Assembly (NCBI GenBank): GCA_029561555.1
Contig: JAKQXH010000044.1
Location: forward strand, 9,691-73,690
DNA from: Candidatus Omnitrophota bacterium
Lineage (GTDB): Bacteria; Omnitrophota; Omnitrophia; Omnitrophales; Omnitrophaceae
Reading direction: 5' to 3'
Length of the DNA: 64,000 nt
Within the stretch, counting starts at the first letter, position 1, and every line of letters begins with the position of its first letter. Positions 28,300 through 55,050 of the stretch are shown in pieces. A model generated the notes under the pieces. That model was given only the letters and a program-made list of their open reading frames with translations, was not told the DNA's origin and searched no databases. A program made the translations under genes and the position numbers.

Positions 28300-29276
28300 T
28301 CTTTTGGAAATGGATTCCTGCCGGATATTGACCGAAACAGGTGAAAGAGACAGTTCCATATTCCGGAAAAGATCCCCATGACGCAGACGATATCGCGGAC
28401 GAGAATGACACCGGTGCTTTTTGCGAGCGGGAGGCGGTTTTGTCTGAGGAAAAGCAGGAAGCTCCGGTTGAGGATGACGATTGCGGCCATGCCGGCCAGG
28501 GAGAGAAGGGGATGTTTCCACAGCGCGGCCAGCGTGATCATCGTCAGGACGGTTTCCAGATAAATCCCCTGTCCCTGGTGGGTCTTGGAGAAAATCATGC
28601 CAGGATGGCAGTAATAGGACCAGACCGTGTCTCTCGCGAAGCGGAACTGCTGTTTGAGATATCCTCGCAGGGAATTTTTAAAATGATGAAGGACCCCGTT
28701 GTCTTTGTCCCAGTAAATTTCGTATTTTTGGCTGATTTTGAAAGAAAGACGGAGGTCCTCGCAGACATACCGTTCCGGGAATTTTCCGCATTCGTAGAAA
28801 ACATCCCGGGTACAGGCAAAATTATTCGCAACCAGCGTTTTAACGAAAGCGGGAGTGTTTTTCCTTCTGTGCGCCAATTCCAGATGGGCGAACCGCTCGA
28901 TAAAAGAATTCCCTTCGGAGCCGGAGTACCCTCCGCCGACGCATCGGACCCGAAAGGATTCTATGTCACGCAGGATGTTCGCGAGCCAGTTTTCCGGGAG
29001 TATGACATCCGCGTCCGTGAAGGCGAGAATTTCCCCGGATGAGGCATCGGCCCCCCGGTTTCTCGCGGCCCCCACGCCTTGATTTTTTTCGCTGCGTGTG
29101 ACTTTTGCGTAACGGGCCGCGATTGATGCGGTCTCGTCCGTGGAGGCGTCATCCGCGACAATGATTTCAAAATCGAGGAAAGTCTGCCGGATGAGCGATT
29201 CAAGGCATTTGTCGATGAATCCTGCCGCGTTATAGGCCGGAATAACGACGGATATTTTCGGCATGATGGTCGTCAA
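28296..29276 (-). CDS. GT2 glycosyltransferase with a C-terminal membrane domain.
   Basis: PKISVVIPAYN...DDASTDET...DADV motifs typical of the GT-A fold. Three or more hydrophobic helices in the last 80 aa. An alternative start at 29264 (MPKIS) is possible. Confidence 0.7.
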   Translation of the reverse strand: MTTIMPKISVVIPAYNAAGFIDKCLESLIRQTFLDFEIIVADDASTDETASIAARYAKVTRSEKNQGVGAARNRGADASSGEILAFTDADVILPENWLANILRDIESFRVRCVGGGYSGSEGNSFIERFAHLELAHRRKNTPAFVKTLVANNFACTRDVFYECGKFPERYVCEDLRLSFKISQKYEIYWDKDNGVLHHFKNSLRGYLKQQFRFARDTVWSYYCHPGMIFSKTHQGQGIYLETVLTMITLAALWKHPLLSLAGMAAIVILNRSFLLFLRQNRLPLAKSTGVILVRDIVCVMGIFSGIWNCLFHLFRSISGRNPFPKE

Positions 29277-30300: not shown

Positions 30301-31715
30301 TCAACGTTGGGAATCGATTAAATACCGGAGAATAATTCTGGCTTTTTTGGCGAAATCCGCCCGTGAAACGTAAAGGCGCATCATTTTGAGGGCGAAGAAT
30401 AATTCATAGACCGTTTTGAGAACAAAACGGGGCAGTGCGAATAAAGCTCTTCGAGCCGGAACCGCGGAATACAGAAAGGGGAAATTGACGAAAAGGGGGA
30501 AAAGACGCATGAGTTTTTGAATGGCTTTATTTTCCCTGGGGGACATTTCTAAAATGGATTGTGTGAAAAAATCGTCCGGGATTTTCTTTTCCGCATTGGG
30601 AACGTAATGTCCGTGAGCGATTGCATACTCGGTCAGCGCCAGGCCGGGAAAGGGGACGAAAATATTCGCGAGCCCCATGGACGGCTTGGCTTTGATATTC
30701 AGTTCCAGTGTCTTCAGCATTTGCCCGAAGCTTTCGCCGGGGAGCCCGATAATATTTCCGATCCGGTACCGGATTTTGTATTGGGTGAGCAATTCGGCTG
30801 TTTTGAAAATTTGCGAGTCCGACATTTGGCGTTTGAGGACCGTATTTCGCATGAATTCGTCTCCCGATTCGATGCTCCAGTTCACGACAATGCATCCGCT
30901 GTCGCGCAGGGCCCGGGCGATTTCCTCGTCGACCAGATTGGCCCGGATATTGCAGGTGTAGGGGAGTCCGATTTCTTTCGGGAAACGTTCGCAAAATTCA
31001 GGAACCATTTCTTGTCGATAATGAACGTGTCGTCGTTGAATACGACCGTCAGCAGGGGATATTTTCCCCGAACCAGCCGGATTTCGTCGAGAAGGTAGCC
31101 GACACTTTTTTTCCGTATTACGGATCCGCAAGTCTTGAAAATTTCCCGGAATTTGTGATTGAAACAATAGGTGCAGTCATAAGGGCATCCCCGGCCTGAC
31201 AGGAACTGTTTGGACGGCATATTCCGTAGAGTGGGATCCACGCGGTAGACGATGTCCCGGTCCGGAAAAGGCAGCCGGTCCAATTCGGCGAAAGGATGAA
31301 ATTCCGACGGGCCGGGGCTTCCTTTGGGAGCGATATTTTTACGGGACCTGAAACCGCTTTGGATGTAATCGAGAAGCGCGATTTCTCCTTCCCCGGCGCA
31401 GAAAGCGTCAATCGTGGAATCCTTGATGCAGTCCCAGTCGAAAGTGGGGCCCGGCCCTCCGATCAGAGAGTTGGCTTTCAGCGTTTGCTTGGCGATTTTA
31501 TCGAATTCCCTGAACGAGGGGACGGCAAAGGAAAAAGCGGAATACAAAAGCAGGTCCGGCGCGAGGCTCCGGATGGTCTGAAGCGCTTTTGCTTGACGGG
31601 GCCCCCGAACAAAATGGACTTCAATGCCGTTCTGCTTCAGGACGCTGGAGAGAGAATAAATCCCGTGGCGGTCGTAAAAATGGCTGAGGGAATCAAAAAA
31701 AACGACGGTGGTCAA
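30301..31715 (-). pseudogene. Cobalamin-binding radical SAM paralog 7, disrupted by a single -1 frameshift near 31003 (or an assembly error).
   Basis: ORFs 30882..31715 (N-terminal B12-like domain plus GRGCPYDCTYC) and 30301..31167 (radical-SAM C-terminal half) overlap in different frames. Together they align end-to-end with intact paralogs (...DKKW | PEFCERFPKEIGL...). Confidence 0.65.
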
Positions 31716-31736: not shown

Positions 31737-34157
31737 TTAATAATTTACCGGCACGTCCCTGACAAATTTATTGTAACCGGTTTTAGGGCGGAGGTAAATT
31801 CCCGAGAGGAGCCAGAGGATGCCGAAGAGCCAGAAGAGGGAATTGATTTCGAAAAAGGCGTACAGGGCGGATAATACGGGAGAGTGAAACGTAAAATGAA
31901 TAAGATTCGGACCTTTTGAAAGCGGGACGGCCTTGTAAGCGAGGTTGGCTTTGAATACGGTCACGGGTTTACCGTTTACAGTGGCTTTCCAGCGGGGATG
32001 CCAGGTGTCGCTGTAAAGCAGCCAGGCGGATTTCAGGTCCGGCGGCATATTGACGGCGAGATTCAGGCGGTTCGCGTCAAAAAACAGGATCCGGTAAGGT
32101 CCCGTCAGGCGGGCGTTGAGGGAAACCGGTTTTTCGGGAGCCCATTCAATGGTCCCCGGAATATTCTTCGGGCTTCGGCCCGGGCGATGCAGGAACGGGA
32201 TGTCGCCGTTATAGTCGGGACGGTTCATCTGAGCGGATGTCCATAAATCCTGCTCGGCAAAATAAATATCGGGGAAGACATACGCGGTTTCGAAGAATTG
32301 AATCTTGTCTTCCGTCAGCCCCGCTATTTTCCCGGAGGCGGGATGGGACAGCGGGAAATCGAGTTTTTTGAGTTCTTCAAAACCTGCCGGTGGAGTCGAA
32401 GTGTCGCGGAGGGACTGTCCCCAGTAAGTTTTCATGTATGAATCAAGCGGCAGGAGCCAGTGATCGGTCCGGTATGCATTGCCGATTTCATCCTGAAACG
32501 TGAAGGACTGAAGCGAGAAATAAGCCGCGCCATAGGAGACCCGTTTTTGGCAGAAGAAGGTGCGCAATTCGCCGGAATTCGGCGAGGCGATGCGCCGCGT
32601 CGCGTAAGGCATGGGCTGGAAAGCAGTGATTTTGGCTTCTTTTTGGTTAAGAGAGACGGTCCTGAGGCAGGTTTCCGAAAATTTGTATTCGCCCAGGTCC
32701 CAAAGATGGAGAGCCAGGGCTATAAAGAGAATGACCCGGGAATATTTTTTAAATTGAGGAGCCGCGCCCGAAATAACTAAAACGCCTGAAATGATCGCAA
32801 GAATAGCCGCGCTGACTGCCCGGGCGGTTATCACCCTGGGCAGGAAGGTCCAGGCGAATTTCGAAAGGCCGTTTGGAACAATAATGGCGAGAAGGACCCT
32901 GAGAGTTTCATGGTTTTTGAGAAGGATGAGGGCGTTGGCCGAAACGGCAAAGAGAACCGCTCCGACAAAGAAAAAGCGGAATTTGGATTTTTTGATTCTG
33001 TCCATAGCGGCGGCATGCGTGAACATCCCGTCCAGTCCCGCGCCCGCCAGGAGACAGAGAAAATATTTCGCGAAAAGAGTAACCAGCGAGAGATGCCGGA
33101 AGAATTTCATTCCGGGCCAGGCGTAATAAAAAAATACGGCCAGCGGCGTGCCCATGGCAAAGAGAGAGATTAAAACCGCCGCGAGGAGGAAATGGGCGTT
33201 TTTCCTGCGAAGCGTGAATAGTCCCAGCAGGGCGAGTGAGATCCCGAGAATTCCGATGTAGAGATTGTAGTCGACGCAGGGGGAAATTCTCAGAAACGAT
33301 TCCATCCAGCAGCCGGGGTTGAGCGTTCCTCCGTATTCGAGGAAATACTTTAAGGGAACGGTTCCGTCGGGATTTCGTCCGAGATAATATTTGGTCAGGA
33401 GGCCGGTTTCGGTCCGGAGCAAGAGCAGGACGGCGAACAATGAAAATAAAACAGCGGCAATAGCGGCAACGGAGGCCATGCTGAATTTAAGAGAAAAGAT
33501 CTTTTTGCGAATCTCACGGGGATTGCAAACGGTATAGGAGGAGAAATAGATAGCGATTACCAACGATAGGACGGGCGGATAGTAGGGTAGATTTGCGAGC
33601 ATTTGAACCGCAAATAAATTTCCCGCAAGAGCCAGATATCTCCATTGTCCCTGTTCGAGAAATCGATGGAGGAGGTCGAGCATGAGAGGCATTGCGTAGT
33701 AGAAATGAAAATTAAACCAGACCTGTCCCGCCCAAATGCAGGAACCCATGACGGACACGGCGGTGAAAAAAGCGGCAGCCGGCGAAAGGAATCTTCTCGC
33801 AAAGAGCCATGTTCCAACCAATAGCAGAAGTTCGTCAAAGAAAATCCCGGCATTGAAAATCTGAATAAAATTAATTCCTTTCAGGAGTGGGGTCGCCAGC
33901 AGCAGGACATTTTGCAGAATTCCGGCTTGAATGGCGTACCACCAGGTCGCGACCGTTCCGTGAGTCATGAAGGGCATCCATTGAGGGATTTCACCGTACA
34001 TGACGGCGTGATTCAGGAAGTAATACTGAAGGGTAAAGTATTCGAATGTGTCATGTCCGTTAGGGATACGGTTTTTAAAGTTCAGGAAAAGAATGAGACT
34101 GAATTCCAGGCAGAGGATTAAAAAGAAAAGAATGCGGTCGAGCCGGGCTGTTTTCAA
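31737..34157 (-). CDS. YfhO-family-like polytopic membrane protein (GT-C-like), paralog D.
   Basis: 806 aa. Many TM helices. C-terminal domain ending in WLLYSDTWHPRWKATVNGKPVTVFKANLAYKAVPLSKGPNLIHFTF plus a terminal TM helix. TTG start overlapping the stop of the upstream B12-rSAM (TTGA). Confidence 0.6.
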   Translation of the reverse strand: MKTARLDRILFFLILCLEFSLILFLNFKNRIPNGHDTFEYFTLQYYFLNHAVMYGEIPQWMPFMTHGTVATWWYAIQAGILQNVLLLATPLLKGINFIQIFNAGIFFDELLLLVGTWLFARRFLSPAAAFFTAVSVMGSCIWAGQVWFNFHFYYAMPLMLDLLHRFLEQGQWRYLALAGNLFAVQMLANLPYYPPVLSLVIAIYFSSYTVCNPREIRKKIFSLKFSMASVAAIAAVLFSLFAVLLLLRTETGLLTKYYLGRNPDGTVPLKYFLEYGGTLNPGCWMESFLRISPCVDYNLYIGILGISLALLGLFTLRRKNAHFLLAAVLISLFAMGTPLAVFFYYAWPGMKFFRHLSLVTLFAKYFLCLLAGAGLDGMFTHAAAMDRIKKSKFRFFFVGAVLFAVSANALILLKNHETLRVLLAIIVPNGLSKFAWTFLPRVITARAVSAAILAIISGVLVISGAAPQFKKYSRVILFIALALHLWDLGEYKFSETCLRTVSLNQKEAKITAFQPMPYATRRIASPNSGELRTFFCQKRVSYGAAYFSLQSFTFQDEIGNAYRTDHWLLPLDSYMKTYWGQSLRDTSTPPAGFEELKKLDFPLSHPASGKIAGLTEDKIQFFETAYVFPDIYFAEQDLWTSAQMNRPDYNGDIPFLHRPGRSPKNIPGTIEWAPEKPVSLNARLTGPYRILFFDANRLNLAVNMPPDLKSAWLLYSDTWHPRWKATVNGKPVTVFKANLAYKAVPLSKGPNLIHFTFHSPVLSALYAFFEINSLFWLFGILWLLSGIYLRPKTGYNKFVRDVPVNY

Positions 34158-35662
34158 GCGAATTTCCTCGTCAGGGTATGGGATGCCATTTCGCGAATGT
34201 GGGTTTCCGTTTCAGGGCCGAATTTTCTCCGGATCATCTCGAGGTATTCCGGGTTTTTGAAATAAGTCTGGAATGCCCGGTCGCGGAAGCGGACGACTTC
34301 AGCGCTTGAAAGATATTTCGTCGGAAGAGGCAGCATGTCTTCCGAATGCTGGGAGTATCCGCCCCAGGTTTTGGGAAGAGGCCAGCCTTCTTTCAGCGCT
34401 TGCCGGTACAGATCGGAGCCCGGATAGGCCATGGTGCAGTAAAAATTGGCGAATTCACAGTTTAATTCCGTTGCCAGGTCGAGCGTTTCCTGCATGGATC
34501 GGAGATCGTCTTCCGGCAGGCCGAAAATATAGTTTCCGATGACGTGAATTCCGGTCGCGTTTACTTCCCGCATGGCCTTGAAAATATCTTCCTGGACAAA
34601 TCCTTTTTGAACGTCGTCCCGCACCCGCGAACTGCCGGCTTCGATTCCGAACGCAAGCCAGTTCATGCCCGCGCGCTTCATTTTTTCGCACAATCCCTTC
34701 CGGAGCGTGTCGACGCGGGCGTACGCCCAAAGATTGAGATCGTATCCCCGTCCGATGATCAGGTCGCAAATCCCTTCGACATGCTTTTCGTTCAGCACAA
34801 ACATTTCATCGGCGATTTTGATGTTTCGGACGCCGTATCGGGAAACGAGAAGATCGATTTGCGTGATGACCCATTGCGGGCTCCAGTAACGGTAGGTGTT
34901 GACGTCCTCCCGGTTTCCGGAAAGCTTTTCTCCGCTTTTGAAAGGCGCGTGAATGCAGCAGAAACTGCAGCGGTAGGGACATCCCAACGTGGTGTAAAGG
35001 GCCGCGTAGGGTTCGCGTTTCAGATGACCGAAGCAATGCCAGTTGTGGGCGCGGTATCGGTTCATGGGGAGAAGGTCCCAAGCCATTGCCGGGATGCCTT
35101 CGTCCAAATTTTTTACGAGCGGCGCCGGGGGATTTGAGTCAATCACGCCGTTGTTGCGGTACCACAATCCCCGTACTTTACCGAGATCACCGGGACGGTC
35201 GGATTTGAGCGCTTCGATGAGATCCGTCAGTGTGTACAGGCATTCCCCGTCACAGACAAAATCCGCGTTTTCATCCCGAAGCGTTCTCTCGGGCAGCGCG
35301 GCGACGTGCCCGCCGGCGAGCAGAATTTTCATCTCCGGCGTTCTTTGTTTGATTGCCGAACAGGCGGCCGAGGCAGCCGGCATATTTTGAGTGGAAGCGG
35401 AAGGCTGATGACCGTAGACAATGACAGCGGCAAGCAGAGGATTGATTTCGGAGACCCGCCGGGCTGTTTCATCGGGGCCGAGCCCTTCGGCGTTTGCGTC
35501 TAGGATTTCGATTGAAAACCCCTTGTTTCGGGCAAATCCCGCCATGATCCCGATCCATACGGGGGGTTCTATGGCGGCGAGACTTCTTCCAAGGGTTTGA
35601 TAGACCTGTGACCGGTTTCCGGGATTGATCAGCAGGAGGTCCGGTTTTCGGGAAGAGGTCAT
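34154..35662 (-). CDS. Cobalamin-binding (class B) radical SAM protein, paralog 8.
   Basis: LLLINPGN... B12-like N-terminus. TLGCPYRCSFC motif. 502 aa. Confidence 0.8.
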   Translation of the reverse strand: MTSSRKPDLLLINPGNRSQVYQTLGRSLAAIEPPVWIGIMAGFARNKGFSIEILDANAEGLGPDETARRVSEINPLLAAVIVYGHQPSASTQNMPAASAACSAIKQRTPEMKILLAGGHVAALPERTLRDENADFVCDGECLYTLTDLIEALKSDRPGDLGKVRGLWYRNNGVIDSNPPAPLVKNLDEGIPAMAWDLLPMNRYRAHNWHCFGHLKREPYAALYTTLGCPYRCSFCCIHAPFKSGEKLSGNREDVNTYRYWSPQWVITQIDLLVSRYGVRNIKIADEMFVLNEKHVEGICDLIIGRGYDLNLWAYARVDTLRKGLCEKMKRAGMNWLAFGIEAGSSRVRDDVQKGFVQEDIFKAMREVNATGIHVIGNYIFGLPEDDLRSMQETLDLATELNCEFANFYCTMAYPGSDLYRQALKEGWPLPKTWGGYSQHSEDMLPLPTKYLSSAEVVRFRDRAFQTYFKNPEYLEMIRRKFGPETETHIREMASHTLTRKFA

Positions 35663-35666
35663 GGGC

Positions 35667-36383
35667 TTATTCCGGGGAGGAAGTTTTCCATTGGCTGTAG
35701 ATTTTCTGGAATTCCTTCAACCGTTCCGGCGTGCCGATATCGTAGAGTTTTTCCGGATTGACGTAGGCGTAAAATTCGTCCGGGCTGAGAGAAGGGAAAA
35801 GGTCTTTTTCGAAAGAAAAAGACCTTCCGGACGGGATTTGCTCCAATATCCGCCGGGTGAAAACATAAATACCCGCGTTCAAATAATTTCCCGGTTCTTT
35901 TTCGCAAAAGGAAAGGATCTGTCTGTCGAGGCCGATCTTGATGCTGCCTGCGTCGGTTCTCGAGCGGTCATCCGGCGTGACCACGGCGGTTGCCAGCACT
36001 TTGTTCTGTTCATGAAACTCCAGAAGGGAGTGATAATCGACCGGGCAGAACGAGTCTCCGTTTAGAACGAGGAAAAAAGGGTTTTTTAGAAAGGGTTCGC
36101 AATTTTTAACGGCTCCCGCGGTTCCGAGGGCTGTTTTCTCCCGGGAAAAATGCAAAGAGAGGCCTTTCCGCTTTTGAAAATATTGCTCAATGATTTCTCC
36201 CTTGTAGCCGGTCGCGAGGATGAATTTTTCGAAGCCGTAGGGGGCGATGCTGTTGATCAGAATTTCAAGGAACGGACTTTGCCCGATCGTGACCATGGGC
36301 TTCGGTATCTTGTCGGTGACGGGTTTGAGACGCTTCCCGATGCCTCCGCACAAGATAATAAGATCAACGTCTTGGGGCTCCAT
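35667..36383 (-). CDS. hddC: Sugar-1-phosphate nucleotidyltransferase, heptose-1-phosphate guanylyltransferase (HddC)-like.
   Basis: ILCGGIGKRLKP (GGxGxRL nucleotidyltransferase signature). 238 aa, short single-domain form. Immediately upstream of a GHMP kinase. Confidence 0.55.
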   Translation of the reverse strand: MEPQDVDLIILCGGIGKRLKPVTDKIPKPMVTIGQSPFLEILINSIAPYGFEKFILATGYKGEIIEQYFQKRKGLSLHFSREKTALGTAGAVKNCEPFLKNPFFLVLNGDSFCPVDYHSLLEFHEQNKVLATAVVTPDDRSRTDAGSIKIGLDRQILSFCEKEPGNYLNAGIYVFTRRILEQIPSGRSFSFEKDLFPSLSPDEFYAYVNPEKLYDIGTPERLKEFQKIYSQWKTSSPE

Positions 36384-36391
36384 GCCGGTTG

Positions 36392-37417
36392 TCAGAAAGT
36401 CCTTTCGCGCAGCAGACGGTCCGTTTTTCGCCGGTTGGGACGGTAAAAAACGATTTGGGAGCCGTTGCTTTCAAGCCGGAAGGGAACCGCAATGAGTTTT
36501 TTGAGCTTCTCGCGGATTTGTTTGTGGTTGTCCGGTTTTGCGAAAAAGAGAATAAATCCTCCTCCCCCGGCGCCGATCAATTTTCCTCCGATGGCGCCCG
36601 CATTGAGGCCTGCTTCGTAGATTTGATCGATTTCGGGAGTCGTCACCCCTTCGGCGAGGCTCCTTTTGAGCATCCAGGATTCATGGAGGAGTTTTCCGAA
36701 ATCCGAAAGATCGTTTCCTCCTCCTAAAATTCCCAGCCCCCGCTCGACCATCTGCCGCATGGAAGCAAGGTCTTCGTTTTTCTTTTCGATGTTTTCGATT
36801 TTTTTCTTGGCGATTTCGGATGCGGTGCGGGAGAACCCCGTGAAAAAGAGCATCAGATGATTTTGAAAATCCTCGAGACGCTCACCGTTCAGGATAACCG
36901 GCTCGACGGTAAAGGTTCCGTCCGGTTTGAAGTTGATTTTGTTCAAGCCTCCGAAGGCCGCCGCGACCTGATCCTGCGATCCGACATTTTCCTTCAGGAC
37001 ATCTCGCTCGATATGAATGGCGTCCAGCGCCAGCTGTTTTTTTGTGGGCATGATTTCCTTGAGCCCATACAGGGCGTGCAGGAGTCCGACGCTGAAAGAG
37101 GAACTGGATCCGGTACCGGTCCTGGCCGGAAGATCGCCGTCATGATGGATTTCAACGCCTTCTTCGATCCCCATGAATTTGAGCGCTTCCCGGACGGCCG
37201 GGTGCTGAATTTCATCCCTGGATTTCACCAGTTCTACTTTGGAATACACGATGCGGCTTTTGTGCTCAAAAAAGGGAGGCAGAAAACGGCACGAAAGATA
37301 GCAGTATTTATCGATGGTCGTCGAGAGGACGCACCCTCCGTGTTTTTCGTACCACGCGGGGTAGTCCGTCCCCCCGCCAAAAAAAGAAATTCGGTAAGGC
37401 GTGCGGCAGATAATCAT
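36392..37417 (-). CDS. hddA: GHMP-family sugar kinase, D-glycero-D-manno-heptose 7-phosphate kinase (HddA)-like.
   Basis: N-terminal RTPYRISFFGGGTDYP motif characteristic of HddA-type GHMP kinases. GHMP ATP-binding region GAGGGGF. 341 aa. Confidence 0.55.
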   Translation of the reverse strand: MIICRTPYRISFFGGGTDYPAWYEKHGGCVLSTTIDKYCYLSCRFLPPFFEHKSRIVYSKVELVKSRDEIQHPAVREALKFMGIEEGVEIHHDGDLPARTGTGSSSSFSVGLLHALYGLKEIMPTKKQLALDAIHIERDVLKENVGSQDQVAAAFGGLNKINFKPDGTFTVEPVILNGERLEDFQNHLMLFFTGFSRTASEIAKKKIENIEKKNEDLASMRQMVERGLGILGGGNDLSDFGKLLHESWMLKRSLAEGVTTPEIDQIYEAGLNAGAIGGKLIGAGGGGFILFFAKPDNHKQIREKLKKLIAVPFRLESNGSQIVFYRPNRRKTDRLLRERTF

Positions 37418-37435
37418 GAAAACCCCTCTTTCGGA

Positions 37436-38365
37436 TTAAAGTCCGGTCCCGCAGAAGCTATTGTGATTTTCAAGAAACCATTCTACGGTTTCTTCCAGCC
37501 CCTTTTCAAGCTTTGTGAATTTAAAACCCGGAAAGCGTTTTGGGAATAGGTTGCTTTTCAGGACTCTGACTCTCTGGCCTTCGGGTTTGCTTTTATCAAA
37601 ACGGATTTTTCCTTTGAATTTCATGGCTCCGGCGATTATTCCGGCAAGATCTCTGATTTTGATTCCGGAGTCCGGCGCCAGGATAACCGTGTCCGGGCTT
37701 TCGATGGATTGACCGGTTTTCAGGATCAACCGCGCGACATCGCCCGAGAAAACAAATTGCCGTACGGCCTCTCCGCTTCCCCAAACCACCAAGGTTTTTC
37801 CGCTTTGTTTGGCGTGAAAACATTTATGGATTAACGCGCTCAGGACGTGGCTATTTTCCAAATCCCAGTGGTCATGCGGCCCGTACATCGTGACGGGCGT
37901 GACGGTCGTGAAGCGGCAACCGTGCTGTTCCCAGAGCAAACGGGTCTGGATGTCCAGCATCCGTTTCGCGCAGCCGTATCCCAGATTCCCGGGGAACGGC
38001 AGGCCGGAATGGAGATCGGTTTCCCGGGTCGGACGCCCGGAGTAAAAAGGGAACGCGCAACTTGAAAGAAGGGACACCAAGCCTTTGACTTTGTGCTTTT
38101 GGGCGGAGGCGAGAACATTGGTGTTGATTTGAATGTTGTCCGCGAAAAAATCCGCGTTCCTTTCGGCGTTGATTTTGACTCCGCCGACTTTTGCCGCAAG
38201 ATGCAGGACCCGGTCCGGCTTTTTATCGCCAAAGATGCGGTCAGTCTGTTTGGCGTCCCGAAGGTCTCCGTTTTGACTCGTCAGAAACGTCGCGCCCGGA
38301 ACAATTTTCCGTACCGCGTGCCCCAGGAGTCCGCTCCCTCCGGTTACGAGGATTTTTTCCTGCAT
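37436..38365 (-). CDS. GDP-L-fucose synthase-like NDP-sugar 3,5-epimerase/4-reductase (Fcl/ColC family).
   Basis: ILVTGGSGLLG...LAAKVGG...LLSSCAFP...YGCAK pattern parallels Fcl (LAAKVGG / GSSCIYP / YxxxK). Start chosen at MQEKILVTGG (38365); the ORF-track extension to 38725 is non-coding-like. Confidence 0.6.
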   Translation of the reverse strand: MQEKILVTGGSGLLGHAVRKIVPGATFLTSQNGDLRDAKQTDRIFGDKKPDRVLHLAAKVGGVKINAERNADFFADNIQINTNVLASAQKHKVKGLVSLLSSCAFPFYSGRPTRETDLHSGLPFPGNLGYGCAKRMLDIQTRLLWEQHGCRFTTVTPVTMYGPHDHWDLENSHVLSALIHKCFHAKQSGKTLVVWGSGEAVRQFVFSGDVARLILKTGQSIESPDTVILAPDSGIKIRDLAGIIAGAMKFKGKIRFDKSKPEGQRVRVLKSNLFPKRFPGFKFTKLEKGLEETVEWFLENHNSFCGTGL

Positions 38366-39528
38366 GAAGCCTCCAGTACGATTTTTGAGATGAAATCCAC
38401 CCCTTGGGCGTCGAGGGCGGGATTGTTGGGAAGAAAGATGCCGCATTGATAAAGCTGATCCGCAACGGGGAAATCGGGCTTTCCGTAGCGGTTGAACCAG
38501 AACGGGTGGCGTCCGAGATTGCCGGCCGTGAAAAGACGCGTTTCGATTCCGTTTTTGGTCAATGCGGCGGCCAGGGAGTGACGTTCGACCGAATTTTTGG
38601 CCAGCATGCAGAAGGAAATGCTGGAGAGCGTGGCATCCGGGTCTTTGCATTGCTGAATGCGAAATCTTTCTCCCAGATGCTTTTGATAACGCAAATGATT
38701 GGCGTGGCGCCTGGAAATCATCCATTCGAGTTTCTCAAGCTGCCGGAGTCCAAGGAAAGCATTCAGGTCCGTCGATCTTAAGTTGAGGCCGGGTTCGTAA
38801 AAGACGAAAGGCTTGTGATCGTCGTTCACGCGGTATTTTTTGACCAGTTTCTGATGGGAGACCGGATCCAGGTCTTTGCTCCAGCCGTGGCTTCTGAGCA
38901 TCAGGAGAAGATCCCGGAAGAGGGGATTGTCCGTGGAAACCATTCCGCCTTCGATTGTGGACATCTGATGCCCGAAATAGAAAGAGAAGCTGGACATGTC
39001 GCCGAAGGTGCCGATTTTTCTTCCGAAAAAGGTGGACCCGATGGAGGCACAGGCGTCTTCAAGCAGGATGAATCTGTATTTTTTCTTGAGTGCCATCACG
39101 GCGTTCATTTTATGCGGGATGCCGAGCACCTGGACCATTGTGACGGCCGAGGGCTCATGTTTTTTAAGGAGTTTTTCGAGATGATCCAGATTTAACCCGA
39201 ATGTGTCCGGATCGGATTCGCAGAGAATCGGCTCGAAACCGAATTGAATGGCCGGCGCAATCGTGGTTACCCATCCGGTGGCCGGGACGATTACTTTTTT
39301 GTTCTTCAGTTTTCCGGAAAGGAGAAGGGCATAATACATCAGCAGGTTGGCCGAAGATCCCGAATTGCAGAACGCGGAAAACTTCCGTCCGATCCATCGG
39401 CTCCATTGATTTTCAAAGAGAACGTTCAACTTGTCCTTGGTCAGTCGGGGAGTCCCTTTCAGCCATTCGATCAGGCGGTCAATGTCTTTTTGGTCGATGG
39501 TGTCTTCCGCGAGATGAAATCGAAGCAT
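38344..39528 (-). CDS. DegT/DnrJ/EryC1/StrS-family PLP/PMP-dependent enzyme with His at the canonical lysine position (ColD/E1-like sugar 3-dehydratase candidate).
   Basis: SGSSANLL...DACASIG...SFSFYFGHQMSTIEGG aligns with the SFHxxKxxxxxEGG aminotransferase motif, with H replacing K. Start chosen at MLRFHLAED (39528). Confidence 0.6.
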   Translation of the reverse strand: MLRFHLAEDTIDQKDIDRLIEWLKGTPRLTKDKLNVLFENQWSRWIGRKFSAFCNSGSSANLLMYYALLLSGKLKNKKVIVPATGWVTTIAPAIQFGFEPILCESDPDTFGLNLDHLEKLLKKHEPSAVTMVQVLGIPHKMNAVMALKKKYRFILLEDACASIGSTFFGRKIGTFGDMSSFSFYFGHQMSTIEGGMVSTDNPLFRDLLLMLRSHGWSKDLDPVSHQKLVKKYRVNDDHKPFVFYEPGLNLRSTDLNAFLGLRQLEKLEWMISRRHANHLRYQKHLGERFRIQQCKDPDATLSSISFCMLAKNSVERHSLAAALTKNGIETRLFTAGNLGRHPFWFNRYGKPDFPVADQLYQCGIFLPNNPALDAQGVDFISKIVLEASCRKKSS

Positions 39529-39556
39529 TGCAAACCCTCCGTTATCTGATTGTGAT

Positions 39557-40591
39557 CTAAAACGGTCCTTTGAATTTTGTCGTGAGCAAAGGGACTTCTT
39601 TCTCCGCGGGAAAGTTCCGGCCCAGCATTTCACACACGGCTTGCGCGATCGTTTTCGCATTGGGATAGAAAATGTTCTCGAGCGGTTTGCTGACCGGGCA
39701 AACGACGGGCGCCATTCCCATCCGCCGGACGGGTGCTTTGAGACTTTTAAACCCTTTTTCCGCGGCAAGGGCGGCGATCTCGGCGCTTGCGCCGCAGGCC
39801 GTCCAGCTCGTATCGATCACAAGCAGGCGCCCCGTTTTTTCGATTGACTTCAAAATAACGCTCTCTTCCAGAGGAACCAGCGTGACCGGATCAATGATTT
39901 CGACGTCGATCCCTTCTCCGGCCAGAAATTCCGCGGCCTTCAAGCTCTCGACGACCATGTAGGAATTCGCGACGATCGTAATGTCTTTCCCCTCACGCCT
40001 GATGTTTGCCTTCTTCAGAGGAATTTCATAATAACCGTCGGGCACTTCGCCCGGGATGTCGTAAAGCAGGCGGTGTTCGATGACGGCGACCGGATTTGGG
40101 TCCGCGATGGCGGCGAGCAGAAGACCTTTCGCATCATAGGCGGTTGTGGGCATGACGACTTTCAGACCGGGGACATGCATGAGAAGCGACTGGGGGCTTT
40201 GCGAGTGCTGGGAACCCTGCCCCCAGCTCCGGCCGATTACGGCGCGGATCACGATCGGGACGCTCATCTGGCCGCCGAACATGTAACGCCATTTGGCGGC
40301 GATGTTGAAGAGTTGGTCCAGCGCGAGATAAAGAAAATCGCAGCGGATATGGATGTGGACGGGTCTCATCCCCGCCAGCGCGGCGCCGATGGCCACGCCG
40401 GTCATCGCGGCTTCCGAAAGCGGGGTGTCGAAAACTCTTTCGCGGCCGAAACGGTCGACCAGGTTCTTAGTGCTGCCGAATACCGCCTTGTGATCGTCGA
40501 CCCCGATTCCCATGATCAAGACGGAAGGATCCCTCTCCATCGCCGCCGTCAGGGCATCTAGGATGGCTTGTCCGTAATTACGCAGACTCAT
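39557..40591 (-). CDS. Thiamine-diphosphate-dependent dehydrogenase E1 beta subunit / transketolase C-terminal-like.
   Basis: Pyrimidine-binding and C-terminal transketolase-like domains (VFDTPLSEAAMTGVAIGAALAG...). ATGA overlap with the E1 alpha gene. Confidence 0.7.
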   Translation of the reverse strand: MSLRNYGQAILDALTAAMERDPSVLIMGIGVDDHKAVFGSTKNLVDRFGRERVFDTPLSEAAMTGVAIGAALAGMRPVHIHIRCDFLYLALDQLFNIAAKWRYMFGGQMSVPIVIRAVIGRSWGQGSQHSQSPQSLLMHVPGLKVVMPTTAYDAKGLLLAAIADPNPVAVIEHRLLYDIPGEVPDGYYEIPLKKANIRREGKDITIVANSYMVVESLKAAEFLAGEGIDVEIIDPVTLVPLEESVILKSIEKTGRLLVIDTSWTACGASAEIAALAAEKGFKSLKAPVRRMGMAPVVCPVSKPLENIFYPNAKTIAQAVCEMLGRNFPAEKEVPLLTTKFKGPF

Positions 40592-41580
40592 TTCGGCTCC
40601 TCGAACAGATCTTCATACAGGCATTCCGGAGCGGGGAAAGGACTTTGTTCGGCGAAAGAAACGGCATCTTCGATCTCTTCCGAGATTTCTTTTTCCCATT
40701 CCGAAAATTGAAGATCGGATATCGAAAAGTGCTTCCGCAGAAATTCTTCCGAACGCGCAAGAGGGTCCCGCTGAATGGCCTGCCGGAGTTTTTCCGGTTC
40801 CCGGTAGGCCTCGGCATGGTCTTTGCCGATTCCCACGTGTTCGTAAATTCGGTAAGTCATGTATTCAAGAAGGACCGGCGCGGGATTTTCTTTTATGCGG
40901 GAAACGGCTTCTTTCATGGTTGAGTAAACTTCGGAAACATTGTTTCCGTCGAAGCGGCAGCCTTGAACGCCCAGGCCTTCCCCGAGGCGGTAGAGTTCTT
41001 TCTGCGTGTGACGGTCTGAGACACGGGAGTGGACGGCGTAGTTGTTGTTTTCGCAGACGTAAATAATCGGAAGCTTCTTGAGGACCGCAAAATTCATGCT
41101 TTCGAAAAACACGCCTTCGTCTACCGCGCCGTCGCCGAAGAAGGCCACCGCAACGCGGTCTTCTTTTTTGATTTTGGCCGCAAGCGCGTCGCCCGTTGCG
41201 ACGGGAATGGTGCTTGCGACGATGGCGGAGCAGCCCATCAGACCGGTTTCCGGTGCGGCCAAATGCATGGAGCCGCCCTTGCCCCGGGAGCAGCCGGTAT
41301 TTTTGGCGTAGAGTTCGGCAAACAACTTTTTAAGGTCACCGCCCCTGCCGATGTAAATGCCGTGTCCCCGGTAGGTGCCGTAGAGGTGGTCGGCGGGACT
41401 GAGCGCGAGGGAGACTCCCGCGGAAACGGCTTCCTGCCCGACGGACAAATGAATCGGGCTTTGGATTTTATCGCTCGGATAAATTTCGGCTACTTTCAGT
41501 TCGGCCAGCCGGATTTTGAGCATGGTCCGGTGAAGCGCGATGCTGATGTTCCGGTCGGGTTTCTGATTTCTAGTCGGCAT
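40588..41580 (-). CDS. Thiamine-diphosphate-dependent dehydrogenase E1 alpha subunit.
   Basis: TPP-binding motif GDGAVDEGVFFESMNFA...ENNNYA (GDG-x-N). Similar to pyruvate/acetoin dehydrogenase E1 alpha. Confidence 0.7.
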   Translation of the reverse strand: MPTRNQKPDRNISIALHRTMLKIRLAELKVAEIYPSDKIQSPIHLSVGQEAVSAGVSLALSPADHLYGTYRGHGIYIGRGGDLKKLFAELYAKNTGCSRGKGGSMHLAAPETGLMGCSAIVASTIPVATGDALAAKIKKEDRVAVAFFGDGAVDEGVFFESMNFAVLKKLPIIYVCENNNYAVHSRVSDRHTQKELYRLGEGLGVQGCRFDGNNVSEVYSTMKEAVSRIKENPAPVLLEYMTYRIYEHVGIGKDHAEAYREPEKLRQAIQRDPLARSEEFLRKHFSISDLQFSEWEKEISEEIEDAVSFAEQSPFPAPECLYEDLFEEPK

Positions 41581-41633
41581 AAGTAGTTTTGGTTCCGGAT
41601 TTTACCATACGGCAAAGATTCGGCATATTTTTA

Positions 41634-42569
41634 TCAAACGTTCGCGTATTGAGTCCGTTTGATGATGCGGTAGCACTTGAGCAATTCCTGAATGCCGGCA
41701 TCCAGGGAAACATCGGGTCTGAACCCGGATTTTTCGATTTTTTCGTTGCTGACGATATAATTTCTCTGGTCGGGGTCTTTGCCGACTTCGGAGGCGGTGA
41801 TGGCGAAATGGGGGACGTGTTTTTTGATCGCTTCGCAAAGCTGACGCTTCGAAAGATTGCAGTCGCTGAGTCCCACGTTGTAAGTTTCCCCCTTCATTTT
41901 CTCGAAGGAATTCATTCCGTGCAGAAAGGCTTTTGCGACGTCCCGGACGTGGATGTAATTCCGGATGAAATCGGCTTCGAAAAGGACGACGAATCCGTCG
42001 AATACGGCCCGGTACACGAAATCATTCACCAGGAGATCCAGTCGCATCCGGGGACTGACGCCGAATGCCGTCGCAAGCCGGAACGTAATGCTCTCGCCCG
42101 AATCGAGAATCATTTTCTCGGCTTCGACCTTGAGGCGGCCGTATAGCGAAATTGGGTTCAAAGGTGTTTTCTCGTCGCAGGCAATACCGGTTTGTCCGAT
42201 GCCGTAACCGCTGTTGGTGGTCGGGTAAATAATTCTCTGATGCCTGCCGCGCATTTTGAGCAATTCTTTGACGGAATCAACGATGACTCCCCGGGCGGTG
42301 CAGGGGTCTTTCGAGCAAAGCGGTGCGCCGGTCAGACAGGCCAGCGGGAAAAGATAATCCGCGTCCTTGACGAGCTTTTCCATCAGCTTTGCGTTGCGGA
42401 CATCCCCGCGGACGACCTGGAACCGGGGATTCGCGCAACAGTCGAGCAGGGAAGCCTGCCGGAACATGAAATTGTCGACGACGGTGACTTCGTGATTTTC
42501 CCGAAGCAGTAAAGGAACGAGGACGGAACCGATATAGCCCGCGCCTCCGGTGACCAGTATTTTTGCCAT
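41634..42569 (-). CDS. NAD-dependent NDP-sugar epimerase/dehydratase (extended SDR; RmlB/GalE-like).
   Basis: MAKILVTGGAGYIGSVLV Rossmann motif. YGRLK (YxxxK) catalytic dyad. Confidence 0.7.
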   Translation of the reverse strand: MAKILVTGGAGYIGSVLVPLLLRENHEVTVVDNFMFRQASLLDCCANPRFQVVRGDVRNAKLMEKLVKDADYLFPLACLTGAPLCSKDPCTARGVIVDSVKELLKMRGRHQRIIYPTTNSGYGIGQTGIACDEKTPLNPISLYGRLKVEAEKMILDSGESITFRLATAFGVSPRMRLDLLVNDFVYRAVFDGFVVLFEADFIRNYIHVRDVAKAFLHGMNSFEKMKGETYNVGLSDCNLSKRQLCEAIKKHVPHFAITASEVGKDPDQRNYIVSNEKIEKSGFRPDVSLDAGIQELLKCYRIIKRTQYANV

Positions 42570-42665
42570 TTTTGATCAACTCCTTTTGATGATTGATGTC
42601 TTGAATATCGGCATTTTGCGAAAAATTATTTCAGCGCGGATTTTTATCGTGAAATCCGGTCCTCA

Positions 42666-42721
42666 AAATTTAGTGCCAACAAAATAGTTCCCTGAAAAAT
42701 CGGAAATAATAGGAGGCTCCC
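42666..42721. repeat. Direct repeat, copy 1 (~56 bp): an orphan duplicate of the 3' end of the GT2 gene at 42831..43562.
   Basis: AAATT(T/C)AGTGCCAACAAAATAGTTCCCTGAAAAAT(C/T)GGAAATAATAGGAGGCTCC found twice, 160 bp apart, with 54 of 56 positions identical. Confidence 0.8.
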
Positions 42722-42825
42722 TCAATGAGCATCGAACTTACGCGACTACAAGGAGCGTCAAGTTCGCCATGCGAATTGATCCCAGCAAGGCGCGGCCAAG
42801 CGGCTTGCGTGGGACTTTCATTTGC

Positions 42826-42881
42826 TAAATTCAGTGCCAACAAAATAGTTCCCTGAAAAATTGGAAATAATAGGAGGCTCC
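42826..42881. repeat. Direct repeat, copy 2 (~56 bp); encodes the last ~16 codons and stop of the GT2 gene at 42831..43562.
   Basis: Same sequence as copy 1; overlaps the GT2 C-terminus (...GASYYFQFFRELFCWH*). Confidence 0.8.
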
Positions 42882-43562
42882 CCACTTGAATATCTTCAGC
42901 TTCCTCACCCCGCCGATTCTCGGAGGTTCGTCTCCCGGGATTTCACCGATGCGGAGTTTCCGCTTCAGCGCCCGGACCGAAAGCAGGGGTTCCCAGCTGA
43001 CTTTCGTCCGGAAAAGTCTTTCGGCCGTCGAGTAGCCTTCGTCTTTGTTTAATTCAAGATCATAAATCAGGCGGGTTTTATAGGCCCGGTAGATGACCAT
43101 GGCGTCCGTGTAATGTCCCTTGTAAAGGAGATTGATCGTATTCGTGAACAGCCGGTTCCCGAATGCCGTCACCGGGTCGTCGTCTTCGCTTTTGGCCCCT
43201 TCAAGGTAGCGGGACACAATGACCATGTCATAACCTTCCTTCATTTTGGCGATCAGGGGCGGGATGAGTTCGGGGATGGAATTCCCGTCGGGACTGAACG
43301 TGATGACGACATCGCCTTCGATGTAGGGGAGGACTTCGTTATATCCCTGCCGGAATCCCGGTTTTTGCTGAACATAGACAAAATACCCGTTTTCCCTGGC
43401 GTATTCAATGGTCCCGTCGGTGGATCCTCCGTCGAGAATGATAATCTGCTCGCACCATTCTTTCCTGACTTTCGGCATAATTGCTTTCATGCCGTCGATT
43501 TCGTTGAGAGTCGGAACCAGTAATGTTGTTTTCATCCGTATCCAATCGCTTTTGATTAGCAA
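42831..43562 (-). CDS. GT2 glycosyltransferase (dolichyl/polyprenyl-phosphate glycosyltransferase-like, soluble form).
   Basis: LLVPTLNE...ILDGGSTDGT...ITFSPDG motifs of the GT-A fold. 243 aa. First gene of the long minus-strand gene array. Confidence 0.65.
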   Translation of the reverse strand: MLIKSDWIRMKTTLLVPTLNEIDGMKAIMPKVRKEWCEQIIILDGGSTDGTIEYARENGYFVYVQQKPGFRQGYNEVLPYIEGDVVITFSPDGNSIPELIPPLIAKMKEGYDMVIVSRYLEGAKSEDDDPVTAFGNRLFTNTINLLYKGHYTDAMVIYRAYKTRLIYDLELNKDEGYSTAERLFRTKVSWEPLLSVRALKRKLRIGEIPGDEPPRIGGVRKLKIFKWGASYYFQFFRELFCWH

Positions 43563-54197: not shown

Positions 54198-55022
54198 TTG
54201 GAGAATTCAGCGGTTAGACAGGTTCGCGCGGGTTCGGTCGTGGCGGGGGGGAAGGACCTGTTTTTGATCGCGGGCCCTTGCGTGATCGAAGATGAAAAAT
54301 CCGTGTTTCGCCATGCGGGAAAAATCGTCCGTATCGCGGAAAAACTCAGGATGCCGTATATTTTCAAAGCGAGTTTTGATAAGGCAAACCGTTCTTCCGC
54401 GAAATCTTTCCGGGGCCCCGGACTCGAACAGGGGCTTGAGATCCTGTCGAAAGTGAAACGGGAATTCGGCGTTCCCGTTCTGAGCGATGTGCATTGCGTG
54501 AGCCAGGCGGAAGCGGCGGGTACAGTTTTGGATGTGATTCAGATCCCCGCTTTTTTGTGCCGGCAGACGGATTTGCTTGTGGCGGCCGCTCAAACGGGCA
54601 AGACGGTGAACGTGAAGAAGGGACAATTCATGGCCCCCTGGGACATGAAGAATGCGGTTGAAAAGATCGAAAAAGCGGGAAATAGGAATATTCTTCTTAC
54701 GGAACGGGGGGTTTCTTTCGGGTACAATACGCTGGTGAGCGATTTTCGCGCGATCCCGGTTTTGCGGGGGCTGGGCTATCCGGTGATATTTGACGCCACT
54801 CATTCGGTTCAGAGACCCGGAGGTCTGGGACAGGTTTCCGGCGGGGACCGCGAATTCATCCCGCTGCTGGCCCGGTGCGGAGTGGCGGCTGGATGCGACG
54901 GAATATTTCTTGAAGTTCATGAAAATCCTTCCCGTGCCAAGAGCGACGGGCCGAATTCAGTTCCGCTCCGGGAGCTCGAGGGACTGCTTAGAAACTTGCT
55001 GCGATTGCGCCGGGCGCTTTGA
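54198..55022 (+). CDS. kdsA: 3-deoxy-8-phosphooctulonate (Kdo-8-P) synthase.
   Basis: LFLIAGPCVIEDE...KASFDKANRSS, the typical DAHP/KDO8P synthase family pattern. 274 aa. Confidence 0.85.
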   Translation: MENSAVRQVRAGSVVAGGKDLFLIAGPCVIEDEKSVFRHAGKIVRIAEKLRMPYIFKASFDKANRSSAKSFRGPGLEQGLEILSKVKREFGVPVLSDVHCVSQAEAAGTVLDVIQIPAFLCRQTDLLVAAAQTGKTVNVKKGQFMAPWDMKNAVEKIEKAGNRNILLTERGVSFGYNTLVSDFRAIPVLRGLGYPVIFDATHSVQRPGGLGQVSGGDREFIPLLARCGVAAGCDGIFLEVHENPSRAKSDGPNSVPLRELEGLLRNLLRLRRAL

Positions 55023-55050
55023 AAAAAACTAAAGGCAGGAACGTGACGCT

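Follow-up and report, generated by a model that had tools for sequence, protein, structure and literature searches.

The GDP-heptose genes of the Campylobacter jejuni capsule, which encode the nucleotidyltransferase HddC (Cj1423), GmhA (Cj1424), the kinase HddA (Cj1425), a C4-dehydrogenase (Cj1427), a reductase (Cj1428) and an epimerase (Cj1430), are among the closest described counterparts of the locus that we report here. Cj1427 is a 2-oxoglutarate-dependent GDP-heptose C4-dehydrogenase that reoxidizes its tightly bound NADH with 2-oxoglutarate, and its product is converted in vitro by the HS:5 C3-dehydratase to GDP-D-glycero-4-keto-3-deoxy-heptose; D-glycero-3-deoxy-heptoses of this C4-dehydrogenase type have been made in vitro only (PMC10680097). 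A second relevant chemistry is that of the thiamine diphosphate (ThDP)-dependent enzyme YerE, which takes a C2 unit from pyruvate and attaches it to CDP-3,6-dideoxy-4-keto-glucose (PMC9306805), and the E1 alpha/beta-like pairs AviB1/B2 and Pau11/12 have been proposed to carry out the same branching (PMC4753412). We have analysed a 64,000-nucleotide stretch of DNA (the window) from a Candidatus Omnitrophota bacterium (assembly GCA_029561555.1, contig JAKQXH010000044.1, positions 9,691 to 73,690 of the forward strand). In an earlier note on this DNA, three genes at 35667-38365, encoding an HddC-like nucleotidyltransferase, an HddA-like GHMP kinase and an Fcl-like short-chain dehydrogenase/reductase (SDR), had been read as an NDP-heptose-type pathway embedded in a locus of radical S-adenosylmethionine (rSAM) enzymes. 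By synteny this trio is an arbitrary slice of a nine-gene unit (34154-43562, minus strand) that is a conserved operon across many uncultured phyla, and we favour, with some reserve, the view that its products together make and export a tailored GDP-sugar; the most likely identity of this sugar is a 3-deoxy heptose that is C-branched and/or C-methylated.

Conservation of the nine-gene cassette

The cassette encodes, in order, a family 2 glycosyltransferase (GT2), a Cj1427-like SDR (SDR1), the alpha and beta subunits of an E1-type ThDP enzyme, a DegT-family protein with His at its active-site position, the Fcl-like SDR, the kinase, the nucleotidyltransferase (hereafter the transferase) and a B12-binding rSAM enzyme (B12-rSAM). 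Three related contigs show how closely this organization is kept: one (L091) matches the cassette gene for gene and in order, with 55-77% identity for its nine members, a second (L092) has eight and lacks an adjacent orthologous transferase, and a third (L093) has seven together with a distant E1 alpha gene, in a rearranged order. The transferase is the least conserved member in this comparison (35-44% identity, against 55-77% for the other genes), and the overlap of the DegT and Fcl-like genes is kept in the related contigs. Since synteny gives a nine-gene cassette, the trio can be ruled out as a self-contained unit.

Variant cassettes are present in a closed Omnitrophota genome (CP070837) and in metagenome-assembled genomes (MAGs) of Brocadiaceae and Firestonebacteria, all of which combine genes for a kinase, a Cj1427-like SDR, a DegT protein, an Fcl-family SDR and a B12-rSAM with those for E1 alpha/beta or, in its place, a split transketolase, and further variants were found in Planctomycetota, Nitrospiraceae, Pelotomaculum, a gammaproteobacterium and a Helicobacter sp. 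When a species-representative genome collection was scanned with SDR1, 494 matching stretches were obtained and the best 80 loci were analysed; among these best 80 of 494 there are SDR1 relatives of 59-69% identity. There are 87 loci with an SDR1 of at least 50% identity, 55 of them with a kinase within reach. Clusters 6, 20 and 22 of the open reading frame (ORF) clustering are antisense artefacts of high-GC loci and were ignored.

The residue at the DegT active-site position, which is His in 22 related loci and Lys in 11, goes along with marked differences in gene content. A ThDP enzyme is encoded in 16 of the 22 His-type loci but in one of the 11 Lys-type loci (Fisher P = 8e-4), an orthologue of the B12-rSAM (at least 40% identity) in 17 and one, respectively (P = 5e-4), and an AglJ/DPM1-like GT2 in 12 and none (P = 2e-3); as the loci are mutually related, these P-values are descriptive only. 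The ThDP enzyme and the rSAM enzyme thus occur jointly with the 3-dehydratase, as would be predicted for a ThDP enzyme whose substrate is a 3-deoxy-4-keto sugar. The earlier suggestion that the modified sugar is the substrate of the neighbouring rSAM enzymes gains support from these counts, at least for the adjacent B12-rSAM. A search of the full-text literature found no description of a combination of C4-dehydrogenase, 3-dehydratase, E1-type ThDP enzyme and B12-rSAM.

A second type of cassette was seen in Verrucomicrobiota, Kiritimatiellia and Lentisphaerota (L019, L021, L024, L063, L064 and others). It consists of a Cj1427-like SDR, a kinase 44-49% identical to that of the window, a Lys-type DegT aminotransferase, a GT4 and an Fcl-like protein with Trp at the epimerase His position, and has neither ThDP enzyme nor rSAM enzyme; it probably makes a 4-amino sugar. 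We also note a gene for a small NUDIX hydrolase, absent from the window, that is inserted in the cassettes of the Firestonebacteria locus (L004, 13132-13650) and of a groundwater contig (L092, 15584-16063), and whose product may hydrolyse a nucleotide-sugar intermediate or by-product.

SDR1, the DegT-family protein and the ThDP enzyme

The strongest support for a heptose-type sugar comes from SDR1 (Table 1), a neighbour of the trio that the earlier note had left unused. Over 308 aa, SDR1 and the Cj1427 orthologue of C. jejuni share 54% identity, and the solved relative of SDR1, 6vo6, is an entry that we take to be Cj1427, an identification supported by a sequence cluster and by locus context. 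The cluster closest to the 6vo6 chain is a 313-aa C. jejuni protein whose gene sits between that of an Fcl-like (Cj1428-like) reductase and those of a GHMP kinase, a SIS protein and an NTP-transferase (hddA/gmhA/hddC), with an RmlC-type epimerase gene upstream (L089). This arrangement matches the Cj1430-Cj1423 capsule heptose layout as described (PMC10680097). By our reading of the sequence, SDR1 has TNSGYG where dehydratases have an acidic pair. It is predicted to make a GDP-4-keto sugar without 6-deoxygenation.

The DegT-family protein is, as judged from its active site, a predicted 3-dehydratase and not an aminotransferase. The His of its FYFGHQMST motif aligns with ColD His188, the residue mutated in 3b8x and 2r0t (H188N, H188K), and an amino-sugar aminotransferase was ruled out because this His replaces the Schiff-base Lys; the orthologues in L091-L093 are 60-66% identical. 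Directly upstream of this gene lie those of the E1 pair, in which the start of the beta gene overlaps the stop of the alpha gene by 4 nt. The alpha subunit carries the GDG...NN ThDP motif but scores 306 bits with the NCBIfam model for pyruvate dehydrogenase E1 alpha, below the cut-off of 394. Orthologues in L091 and L092 have 61-65% identity for E1 alpha and 71% for E1 beta, and no E2 or E3 partner of the pair is encoded within the window.

Table 1. Predicted products and positions (in the window) of the cassette genes and of the membrane-protein gene that follows them, in order of transcription
Predicted product	Position	Strand	Length	Match
GT2 glycosyltransferase, AglJ/dolichyl-P hexose transferase-like, first cassette gene	42831-43562	(-)		Pfam Glycos_transf_2
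SDR1, Cj1427-type NAD-dependent sugar-nucleotide C4-dehydrogenase	41634-42569	(-)		376.5 bits to PDB 6vo6
ThDP-dependent E1 alpha-like subunit	40588-41580	(-)		Pfam E1_dh, 229 bits
ThDP-dependent E1 beta-like subunit	39557-40591	(-)		Pfam Transket_pyr, Transketolase_C
DegT-family ColD/E1-type pyridoxamine/pyridoxal phosphate (PMP/PLP)-dependent C3-dehydratase	38344-39528	(-)		ColD 2gms best solved relative, 158.5 bits
Fcl/GFUS-like SDR	37436-38365	(-)	309 aa	Pfam Epimerase, E 3.6e-41
HddA/WcbL-like GHMP anomeric sugar kinase	36392-37417	(-)	341 aa	Pfam GHMP_kinases_N, E 4.6e-12; GHMP_kinases_C, E 9.4e-14
HddC/ManC-like sugar-1-phosphate nucleotidyltransferase	35667-36383	(-)	238 aa	Pfam NTP_transferase, E 6.9e-32, 111 bits
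B12-binding radical-SAM enzyme, last conserved cassette gene	34154-35662	(-)		Pfam B12-binding, Radical_SAM
YfhO-like polytopic membrane protein, candidate GT-C transferase	31737-34157	(-)		Pfam YfhO, 23.8 bits (gathering score 28.5)

The kinase, transferase and Fcl-like genes

As described in the earlier note, the trio consists of three consecutive co-directional ORFs with exactly the coordinates given, and the CGGIGKRL, RISFFGGGTD, HLAAKVGG, LLSSCAFP and YGCAK motifs are all found in the translations. Gaps of 8 nt (transferase to kinase), 18 nt (kinase to Fcl-like gene) and 4 nt (transferase to the downstream B12-rSAM gene) were measured, and the DegT-like gene upstream, which stops at 38344, overlaps the Fcl-like start (38365) by 22 nt, close to the 5-19-nt gaps or an overlap claimed before. 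The translations of the transferase, kinase and Fcl-like genes are identical to the deposited proteins HNV85630.1, HNV85629.1 and HNV85628.1 of a Candidatus Omnitrophota MAG, so their starts agree with those of the Prokaryotic Genome Annotation Pipeline (PGAP). The mechanically called ORF of the Fcl-like gene extends to 38725, with the onset of homology at MQEKILVTGGSG.

The kinase is nearer to HddA than to other GHMP kinases, with 136.4 bits for the HddA model of NCBIfam, 78.4 for fucokinase, 60.3 for galactokinase and 59.4 for mevalonate kinase; it does not, therefore, group with the fucokinase or galactokinase type. Its best solved relatives are heptokinases, with 124 bits for 3k85, 114 for WcbL and 106 for C. 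jejuni 4n3o, against 51 for Fkp. The catalytic and ligand residues listed for WcbL (PMC4691232) are conserved, R13, D22, S118-S120, Q162 and D163 being aligned with R9, D18, GTGSSSS and SQDQ of the kinase. More than 8000 homologues were found, many of them about 65% identical, in Omnitrophota, Elusimicrobiota, Chloroflexota, Bdellovibrionota, Firestonebacteria and Brocadiaceae; they are labelled 'kinase' at NCBI, and the Joint Genome Institute (JGI) has transferred to them the KEGG Orthology (KO) term for heptose-7-phosphate kinase.

The transferase, with its NTP_transferase fold and GGxGxRL motif, has guanylyltransferases as closer relatives than RmlA, GalU or GlmU. Its NCBIfam scores are 148.3 bits for mannose-1-phosphate guanylyltransferase, 124.9 for HddC, 49.2 for RmlA-long and 39.3 for GalU, its best solved relative is Yersinia pseudotuberculosis HddC (5xhw, 116.7 bits), and it is 34% identical to C. 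jejuni HddC. These similarities suggest that it is probably a guanylyltransferase and not an RmlA-like enzyme, and the GDP-using relatives of four downstream enzymes would be in keeping with a specificity for GTP and heptose 1-phosphate.

The Fcl-like protein is closest to human GDP-fucose synthase (GFUS, 244 bits), ahead of Escherichia coli Fcl (144 bits) and of the Campylobacter heptose reductases MlghC (114 bits; 7anh) and DdahC (72 bits; 7anc), the structure assignments of the last two being from PMC7949155; it is 26% identical to Cj1428. Its SSC, YGCAK and GPHD segments align with STC, YSYAK and GPHD of human GFUS, and an alignment of 54 family members confirms that it has the Ser-x-Cys, YxxxK and epimerase His. 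In most Fcl-family proteins of the related loci the epimerase His position is N, G or W, and these proteins should thus be reductase-only, like the Campylobacter enzymes. The orthologues with 55-76% identity directly follow a His-type DegT gene, and the overlap is conserved. From these features the Fcl-like protein may be taken as a predicted 4-keto-sugar epimerase/reductase. The description of this protein as GDP-fucose-synthase-like thus holds as regards its catalytic residues and its nearest relative but not as regards family membership (see below), nor is a Gmd-type GDP-mannose 4,6-dehydratase encoded in the window, where the other SDRs are Cj1427-like and HpnA-like. The earlier analogy with Campylobacter 6-deoxyheptoses does not stand: a route by way of a 4,6-dehydratase and an Fcl-like reductase is ruled out, since no such dehydratase is present and SDR1 is Cj1427-like, and entry to 4-keto chemistry would be through a C4-dehydrogenase of the Cj1427 type, with a 3-dehydratase of the ColD type acting next.

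The rSAM enzyme and the glycosyltransferases

The B12-rSAM of the cassette, whose orthologues in related loci are 45-66% identical, has HpnJ as its best NCBIfam family (164.6 bits, below the cut-off of 577.6) and AprD4 as its best solved relative (47.8 bits). The second SDR of the operon, encoded at 27304-28326 (-), is HpnA-like (229 bits; cut-off 368). As both of these nearest families belong to the hopanoid sugar/cyclitol branch, one possibility is that the rSAM enzyme rearranges a sugar rather than methylating it.

The GT2 scores below the cut-offs of both its best models (AglJ, 80 bits; dolichyl-P hexose transferase, 55.5 bits), and has orthologues of 51-77% identity in L001, L004, L008, L012, L016, L018, L032, L046, L084, L091 and L092. 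By its similarity it would transfer the finished sugar from GDP onto polyprenyl phosphate. The gene for the YfhO-like protein overlaps the stop of the rSAM gene by 4 nt at its start; no sequence-level conservation of this protein was seen in the related loci, and L001 and L092 have PMT_2-type GT-C proteins inside the cassette instead. It might conceivably be a GT-C transferase that uses the lipid-linked sugar. A PgfS/ArnC-like GT2 is encoded further down the operon.

Proposed pathway

From the gene identities, family placements, conserved catalytic residues, synteny and co-occurrence described above we infer the following route, including its substrate, its nucleotide, the order of steps 4 to 7, the roles of the ThDP and rSAM enzymes and the final acceptor. 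A GmhB-type phosphatase encoded elsewhere would remove the 7-phosphate (step 1), and the HddC/ManC-like transferase would form the GDP-sugar (step 2); GDP is suggested as the nucleotide because the closest characterized relatives (those of Cj1427, ColD, GFUS and HddC/ManB type) use GDP-sugars. The Cj1427-type SDR would then oxidize C4 (step 3) and the ColD-type enzyme would remove the 3-OH with PLP and glutamate (step 4), releasing 2-oxoglutarate that could feed step 3. In step 5 the E1 alpha/beta pair would use pyruvate to give the 3-deoxy-4-keto sugar an acyl branch of two carbons, in the manner of YerE and AviB1/AviB2, a role that we propose by analogy with yersiniose. The Fcl-like enzyme would epimerize the sugar and reduce a keto group (step 6). 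Once the 3-OH has been removed C5 is the sole epimerizable position, as with ColC in the colitose pathway, and the enzyme probably either gives the product an L configuration or acts as the reductase of the branch carbonyl. Methylation or rearrangement by the B12-rSAM at an unactivated carbon would be step 7, and in step 8 the AglJ/DPM1-like GT2 would load the sugar on polyprenyl phosphate for a GT-C enzyme (YfhO-like) acting outside the cytoplasm; an ArnC/ArnT-like lipid-carrier route to an envelope acceptor seems a reasonable inference by analogy.

A more specific product can be put forward only tentatively, and we think it rather doubtful in all its particulars: a GDP-linked D-glycero-3-deoxy-heptose with an acyl or hydroxyalkyl branch installed by the ThDP enzyme, modified by the B12-rSAM while nucleotide- or lipid-linked and passed by way of polyprenyl phosphate and a GT-C enzyme to the envelope, a sugar that would be undescribed in nature. 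For the B12-rSAM enzymes a nucleotide- or lipid-linked sugar would be a first substrate of its class; on this reading the pathway is widespread in uncultured phyla, among them Omnitrophota, anammox Planctomycetota, Nitrospirota and Firestonebacteria, and in the window it would seed a locus with about a dozen further rSAM enzymes.

Heptose or hexose

A heptose is a likely substrate, and we hold this with reasonable though far from complete confidence; the heptose route needs a dedicated anomeric kinase and GDP-mannose normally needs none. One difficulty is the supply of the heptose phosphate. The earlier statement that the locus contains no gmhA or gmhB was borne out when the window was searched by tblastn, with GmhA from both E. 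coli and C. jejuni and GmhB from E. coli as queries, and neither gene is found in the approximately 5 kb upstream or 10 kb downstream on a longer contig. Two SIS proteins were considered and ruled out as GmhA: a match at 55321-55458 belongs to the single SIS protein of the window, a KdsD-type protein with SIS and CBS domains (55051-56019) encoded beside kdsA, and a SIS-like protein beyond the window passes the cut-off for bifunctional phosphoglucose/phosphomannose isomerase (PGI/PMI; 362.9 against 295 bits).

In the window an hddC-like gene adjoins the kinase gene, and among the 55 kinase-bearing related loci gmhA is present in nine and gmhB in four. At least 11 loci have one or both genes linked to an orthologous kinase; among them are two complete cassettes of the window type, in Pelotomaculum (L020) and the gammaproteobacterium (L033), and in a neighbour-joining kinase tree rooted on C. 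jejuni HddA the gmhA-linked kinases are interspersed in the half that contains the window kinase. In Fontivita (L056) gmhB lies between the transferase and kinase genes and no gmhA is found in the locus. In C. jejuni itself gmhB lies outside the capsule locus (PMC10680097), and with the Fontivita example this indicates that unlinked genes are normal.

A number of points weigh against the pathway that we favour. Neither gmhA nor gmhB occurs in the approximately 79 kb around the cassette, and 46 of the 55 kinase-bearing related loci are without gmhA. All three proteins of the trio fall far below their equivalog cut-offs, the kinase with 136.4 bits against 600 for HddA (and 28% identity to the C. 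jejuni protein), the transferase with 124.9 against 300 for HddC (NF049965) and 148.3 against 440 for mannose-1-phosphate guanylyltransferase, and the Fcl-like protein with 194.8 against 500 for Fcl (NF047922), its best model. They are thus HddA-, HddC- and Fcl-like relatives and not members of these families, so that of the identities first proposed for the kinase and transferase it is the nearest relationship that survives; moreover, the transferase scores slightly higher with the mannose-1-phosphate guanylyltransferase model than with that for HddC. The nearest families of the rSAM enzyme (HpnJ, AprD4 and BchE) are distant and differ in their chemistries, acylation of C4 by the ThDP enzyme would leave no obvious need for a C4 reductase, and the co-occurrence counts come from non-independent loci in which ORF and tblastn calls miss genes in short or high-GC contigs.

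One alternative is that the same chemistry acts on a hexose. The kinase would then make mannose 1-phosphate or another hexose 1-phosphate directly, with no need of GmhA or GmhB, and the product would be a GDP-3-deoxy branched hexose, similar to colitose or yersiniose with O6 kept. The pattern of gmhA and gmhB absence and the top model of the transferase are as this alternative predicts, mannose is bound in the WcbL sugar pocket in crystals (PMC4691232), and a genuine PGI/PMI is encoded just outside the window. We nevertheless consider it improbable, if well short of negligible. GDP-mannose is normally made by way of phosphomannomutase, and an anomeric kinase conserved at about 65% identity across phyla suits a heptose; the loci in which gmhA or gmhB is linked to an orthologous kinase are scattered in the same clade; the sole characterized relative of SDR1, Cj1427, was characterized on GDP-heptose; and among the tailoring enzymes of Campylobacter the preference is for the C7 sugar (PMC7949155).

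The biosynthesis of lincomycin offers another model. LmbR, LmbP and LmbO build and activate its GDP-octose, and HddA-/HddC-like pairs there act on higher sugars other than heptoses. By this precedent the ThDP enzyme might first build a higher-carbon sugar phosphate, neither a standard heptose nor branched, that the kinase and transferase then activate, which would account for the dispensability of gmhA. In sister loci, moreover, E1 alpha/beta is replaced by a split transketolase, an enzyme of chain-extending type. We think this unlikely, however, because its ketose product would need an isomerase and a phosphatase, neither of which is in the cassette, and because the ThDP enzyme tracks the 3-dehydratase and not the kinase (Lys-type kinase loci are without it), as fits action on a 3-deoxy-4-keto intermediate. 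That the trio is simply an ordinary supply of GDP-L-fucose or GDP-colitose, with a salvage kinase, a pyrophosphorylase and a true GDP-fucose synthase unrelated to the rSAM genes, is very improbable: every GFUS catalytic residue is kept, human GDP-fucose synthase is the best solved relative and some orthologues are labelled GDP-L-fucose synthase by JGI, but the window has no GDP-mannose 4,6-dehydratase, the kinase is nearer to HddA than to fucokinase, the Fcl-like orthologues are in the same cassette with their genes overlapping that of a His-type DegT protein, and the Fcl score is below its cut-off.

No enzyme of the proposed GDP-heptose pathway falls outside known families, and Campylobacter already has the first half of the route. 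Taken by itself the trio is ordinary; it is the conserved, widespread and biochemically tractable cassette that is of interest, and the apparent novelty lies in the combination of a C4-dehydrogenase, a 3-dehydratase, an E1-type ThDP enzyme and a B12-rSAM on a GDP-heptose scaffold. If the proposal is correct, there is a natural and widespread pathway for the 3-deoxy-D-glycero-heptoses hitherto obtained only in vitro, from mixed Campylobacter enzymes, E1-type ThDP enzymes and a B12-rSAM become GDP-heptose tailoring enzymes, yersiniose-type branching is extended to seven-carbon sugars and radical-SAM enzymology gains a substrate class. The eight soluble enzymes, with predictable substrates, would also provide a testable entry to an rSAM-rich Omnitrophota glycan locus, and the large HddA-like kinase family would gain an evidence-based context. 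If it is wrong, the trio has still been correctly recognized, as an ordinary sugar-nucleotide module.

The surrounding locus

At least 11 rSAM genes besides that of the cassette lie at 5026-27307 and 46448-47647; at least seven of their products are B12-binding, one has a SPASM domain and one is of the MiaB-like UPF0004 type, and the genes are interleaved with GT2 genes and those of two or three YfhO-like membrane proteins. At 30301-31715 (-) two ORFs in different frames share about 286 nt, one (30882-31715) for an N-terminal B12-binding part and the other (30301-31167) for a C-terminal radical-SAM part, and the pair looks like one frameshift-split B12-rSAM gene, whether through pseudogene formation, sequencing error or programmed frameshifting. 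On the longer contig (L086, 11868-16185), about 0.5-5 kb past the 3' end of the window, the PGI/PMI gene is accompanied by genes for a second NTP-transferase, of AglF/RmlA-like type, SAM synthetase and S-adenosylhomocysteine (SAH) hydrolase, which puts SAM-cycle genes close to the dozen or so radical-SAM genes of the locus.

The organism is diderm. Genes at 54198-58642 (+), adjoining the glycan locus, encode lipopolysaccharide (LPS) functions, namely a KdsA-type Kdo-8-P synthase, KdsD, a lipid A acyltransferase, an LptC/LptA-like protein and the LptB ATPase, and LPS is a candidate acceptor of the modified sugar. At the left end of the window (43-3561, +; L094, 2918-8536) is the tail of a protein of about 1872 aa that has no Pfam match and is preceded by a LytTR-type two-component system; two other large ORFs (6552-9038 and 14105-17014) likewise have no Pfam match.

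Comparison with known systems

The B12-rSAM resembles the GenK/GenD1 C-methylases, HpnJ and AprD4 in having B12-binding and radical-SAM domains and in being encoded with sugar-tailoring genes; HpnJ and AprD4 act on sugars, although the window enzyme is very distant from both. We know of no B12-rSAM that acts on a nucleotide sugar, and our literature search found none linked to GDP-heptose. The last part of the proposed route is similar to the lipid-carrier glycosylations of ArnC/ArnT and DPM1/PMT, in that an AglJ/DPM1-like GT2 is encoded first and GT-C-type membrane proteins within or next to the cassette, but the window scores are all below the family cut-offs, and no flippase for such a route was identified.

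With yersiniose (YerE/YerF), AviB1/AviB2 and Pau11/Pau12 the locus shares a ThDP gene beside genes for a 3-dehydratase and a ketoreductase. It differs in that the nucleotide is probably GDP, not CDP or TDP, and the substrate probably an O6-retaining heptose; branching by an E1 pair of the window type is putative, and sister loci use a split transketolase. The pathways for GDP-L-colitose (ColD and ColC) and the C. jejuni HS:5 3,6-dideoxyheptose likewise act on a GDP-4-keto sugar with a His-for-Lys 3-dehydratase followed by an Fcl-family enzyme. These pathways begin, however, with a 4,6-dehydratase and lead to 6-deoxy sugars, whereas the 4-keto group in the window pathway would come from a C4-dehydrogenase, so that O6 should be kept.

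The C. jejuni capsule genes have in common with the cassette a kinase of HddA type and a transferase of HddC type, and after these C4 oxidation of the Cj1427 type and reduction by an Fcl-family enzyme, with 28%, 34% and 26% identity for the kinase, transferase and reductase, respectively. The window locus departs from them in lacking gmhA and the RmlC-type epimerase Cj1430, in having an Fcl-like enzyme that retains the epimerase Cys/His pair, and in the addition of a 3-dehydratase, a ThDP E1 alpha/beta pair, a B12-rSAM and a polyprenyl-phosphate GT2.

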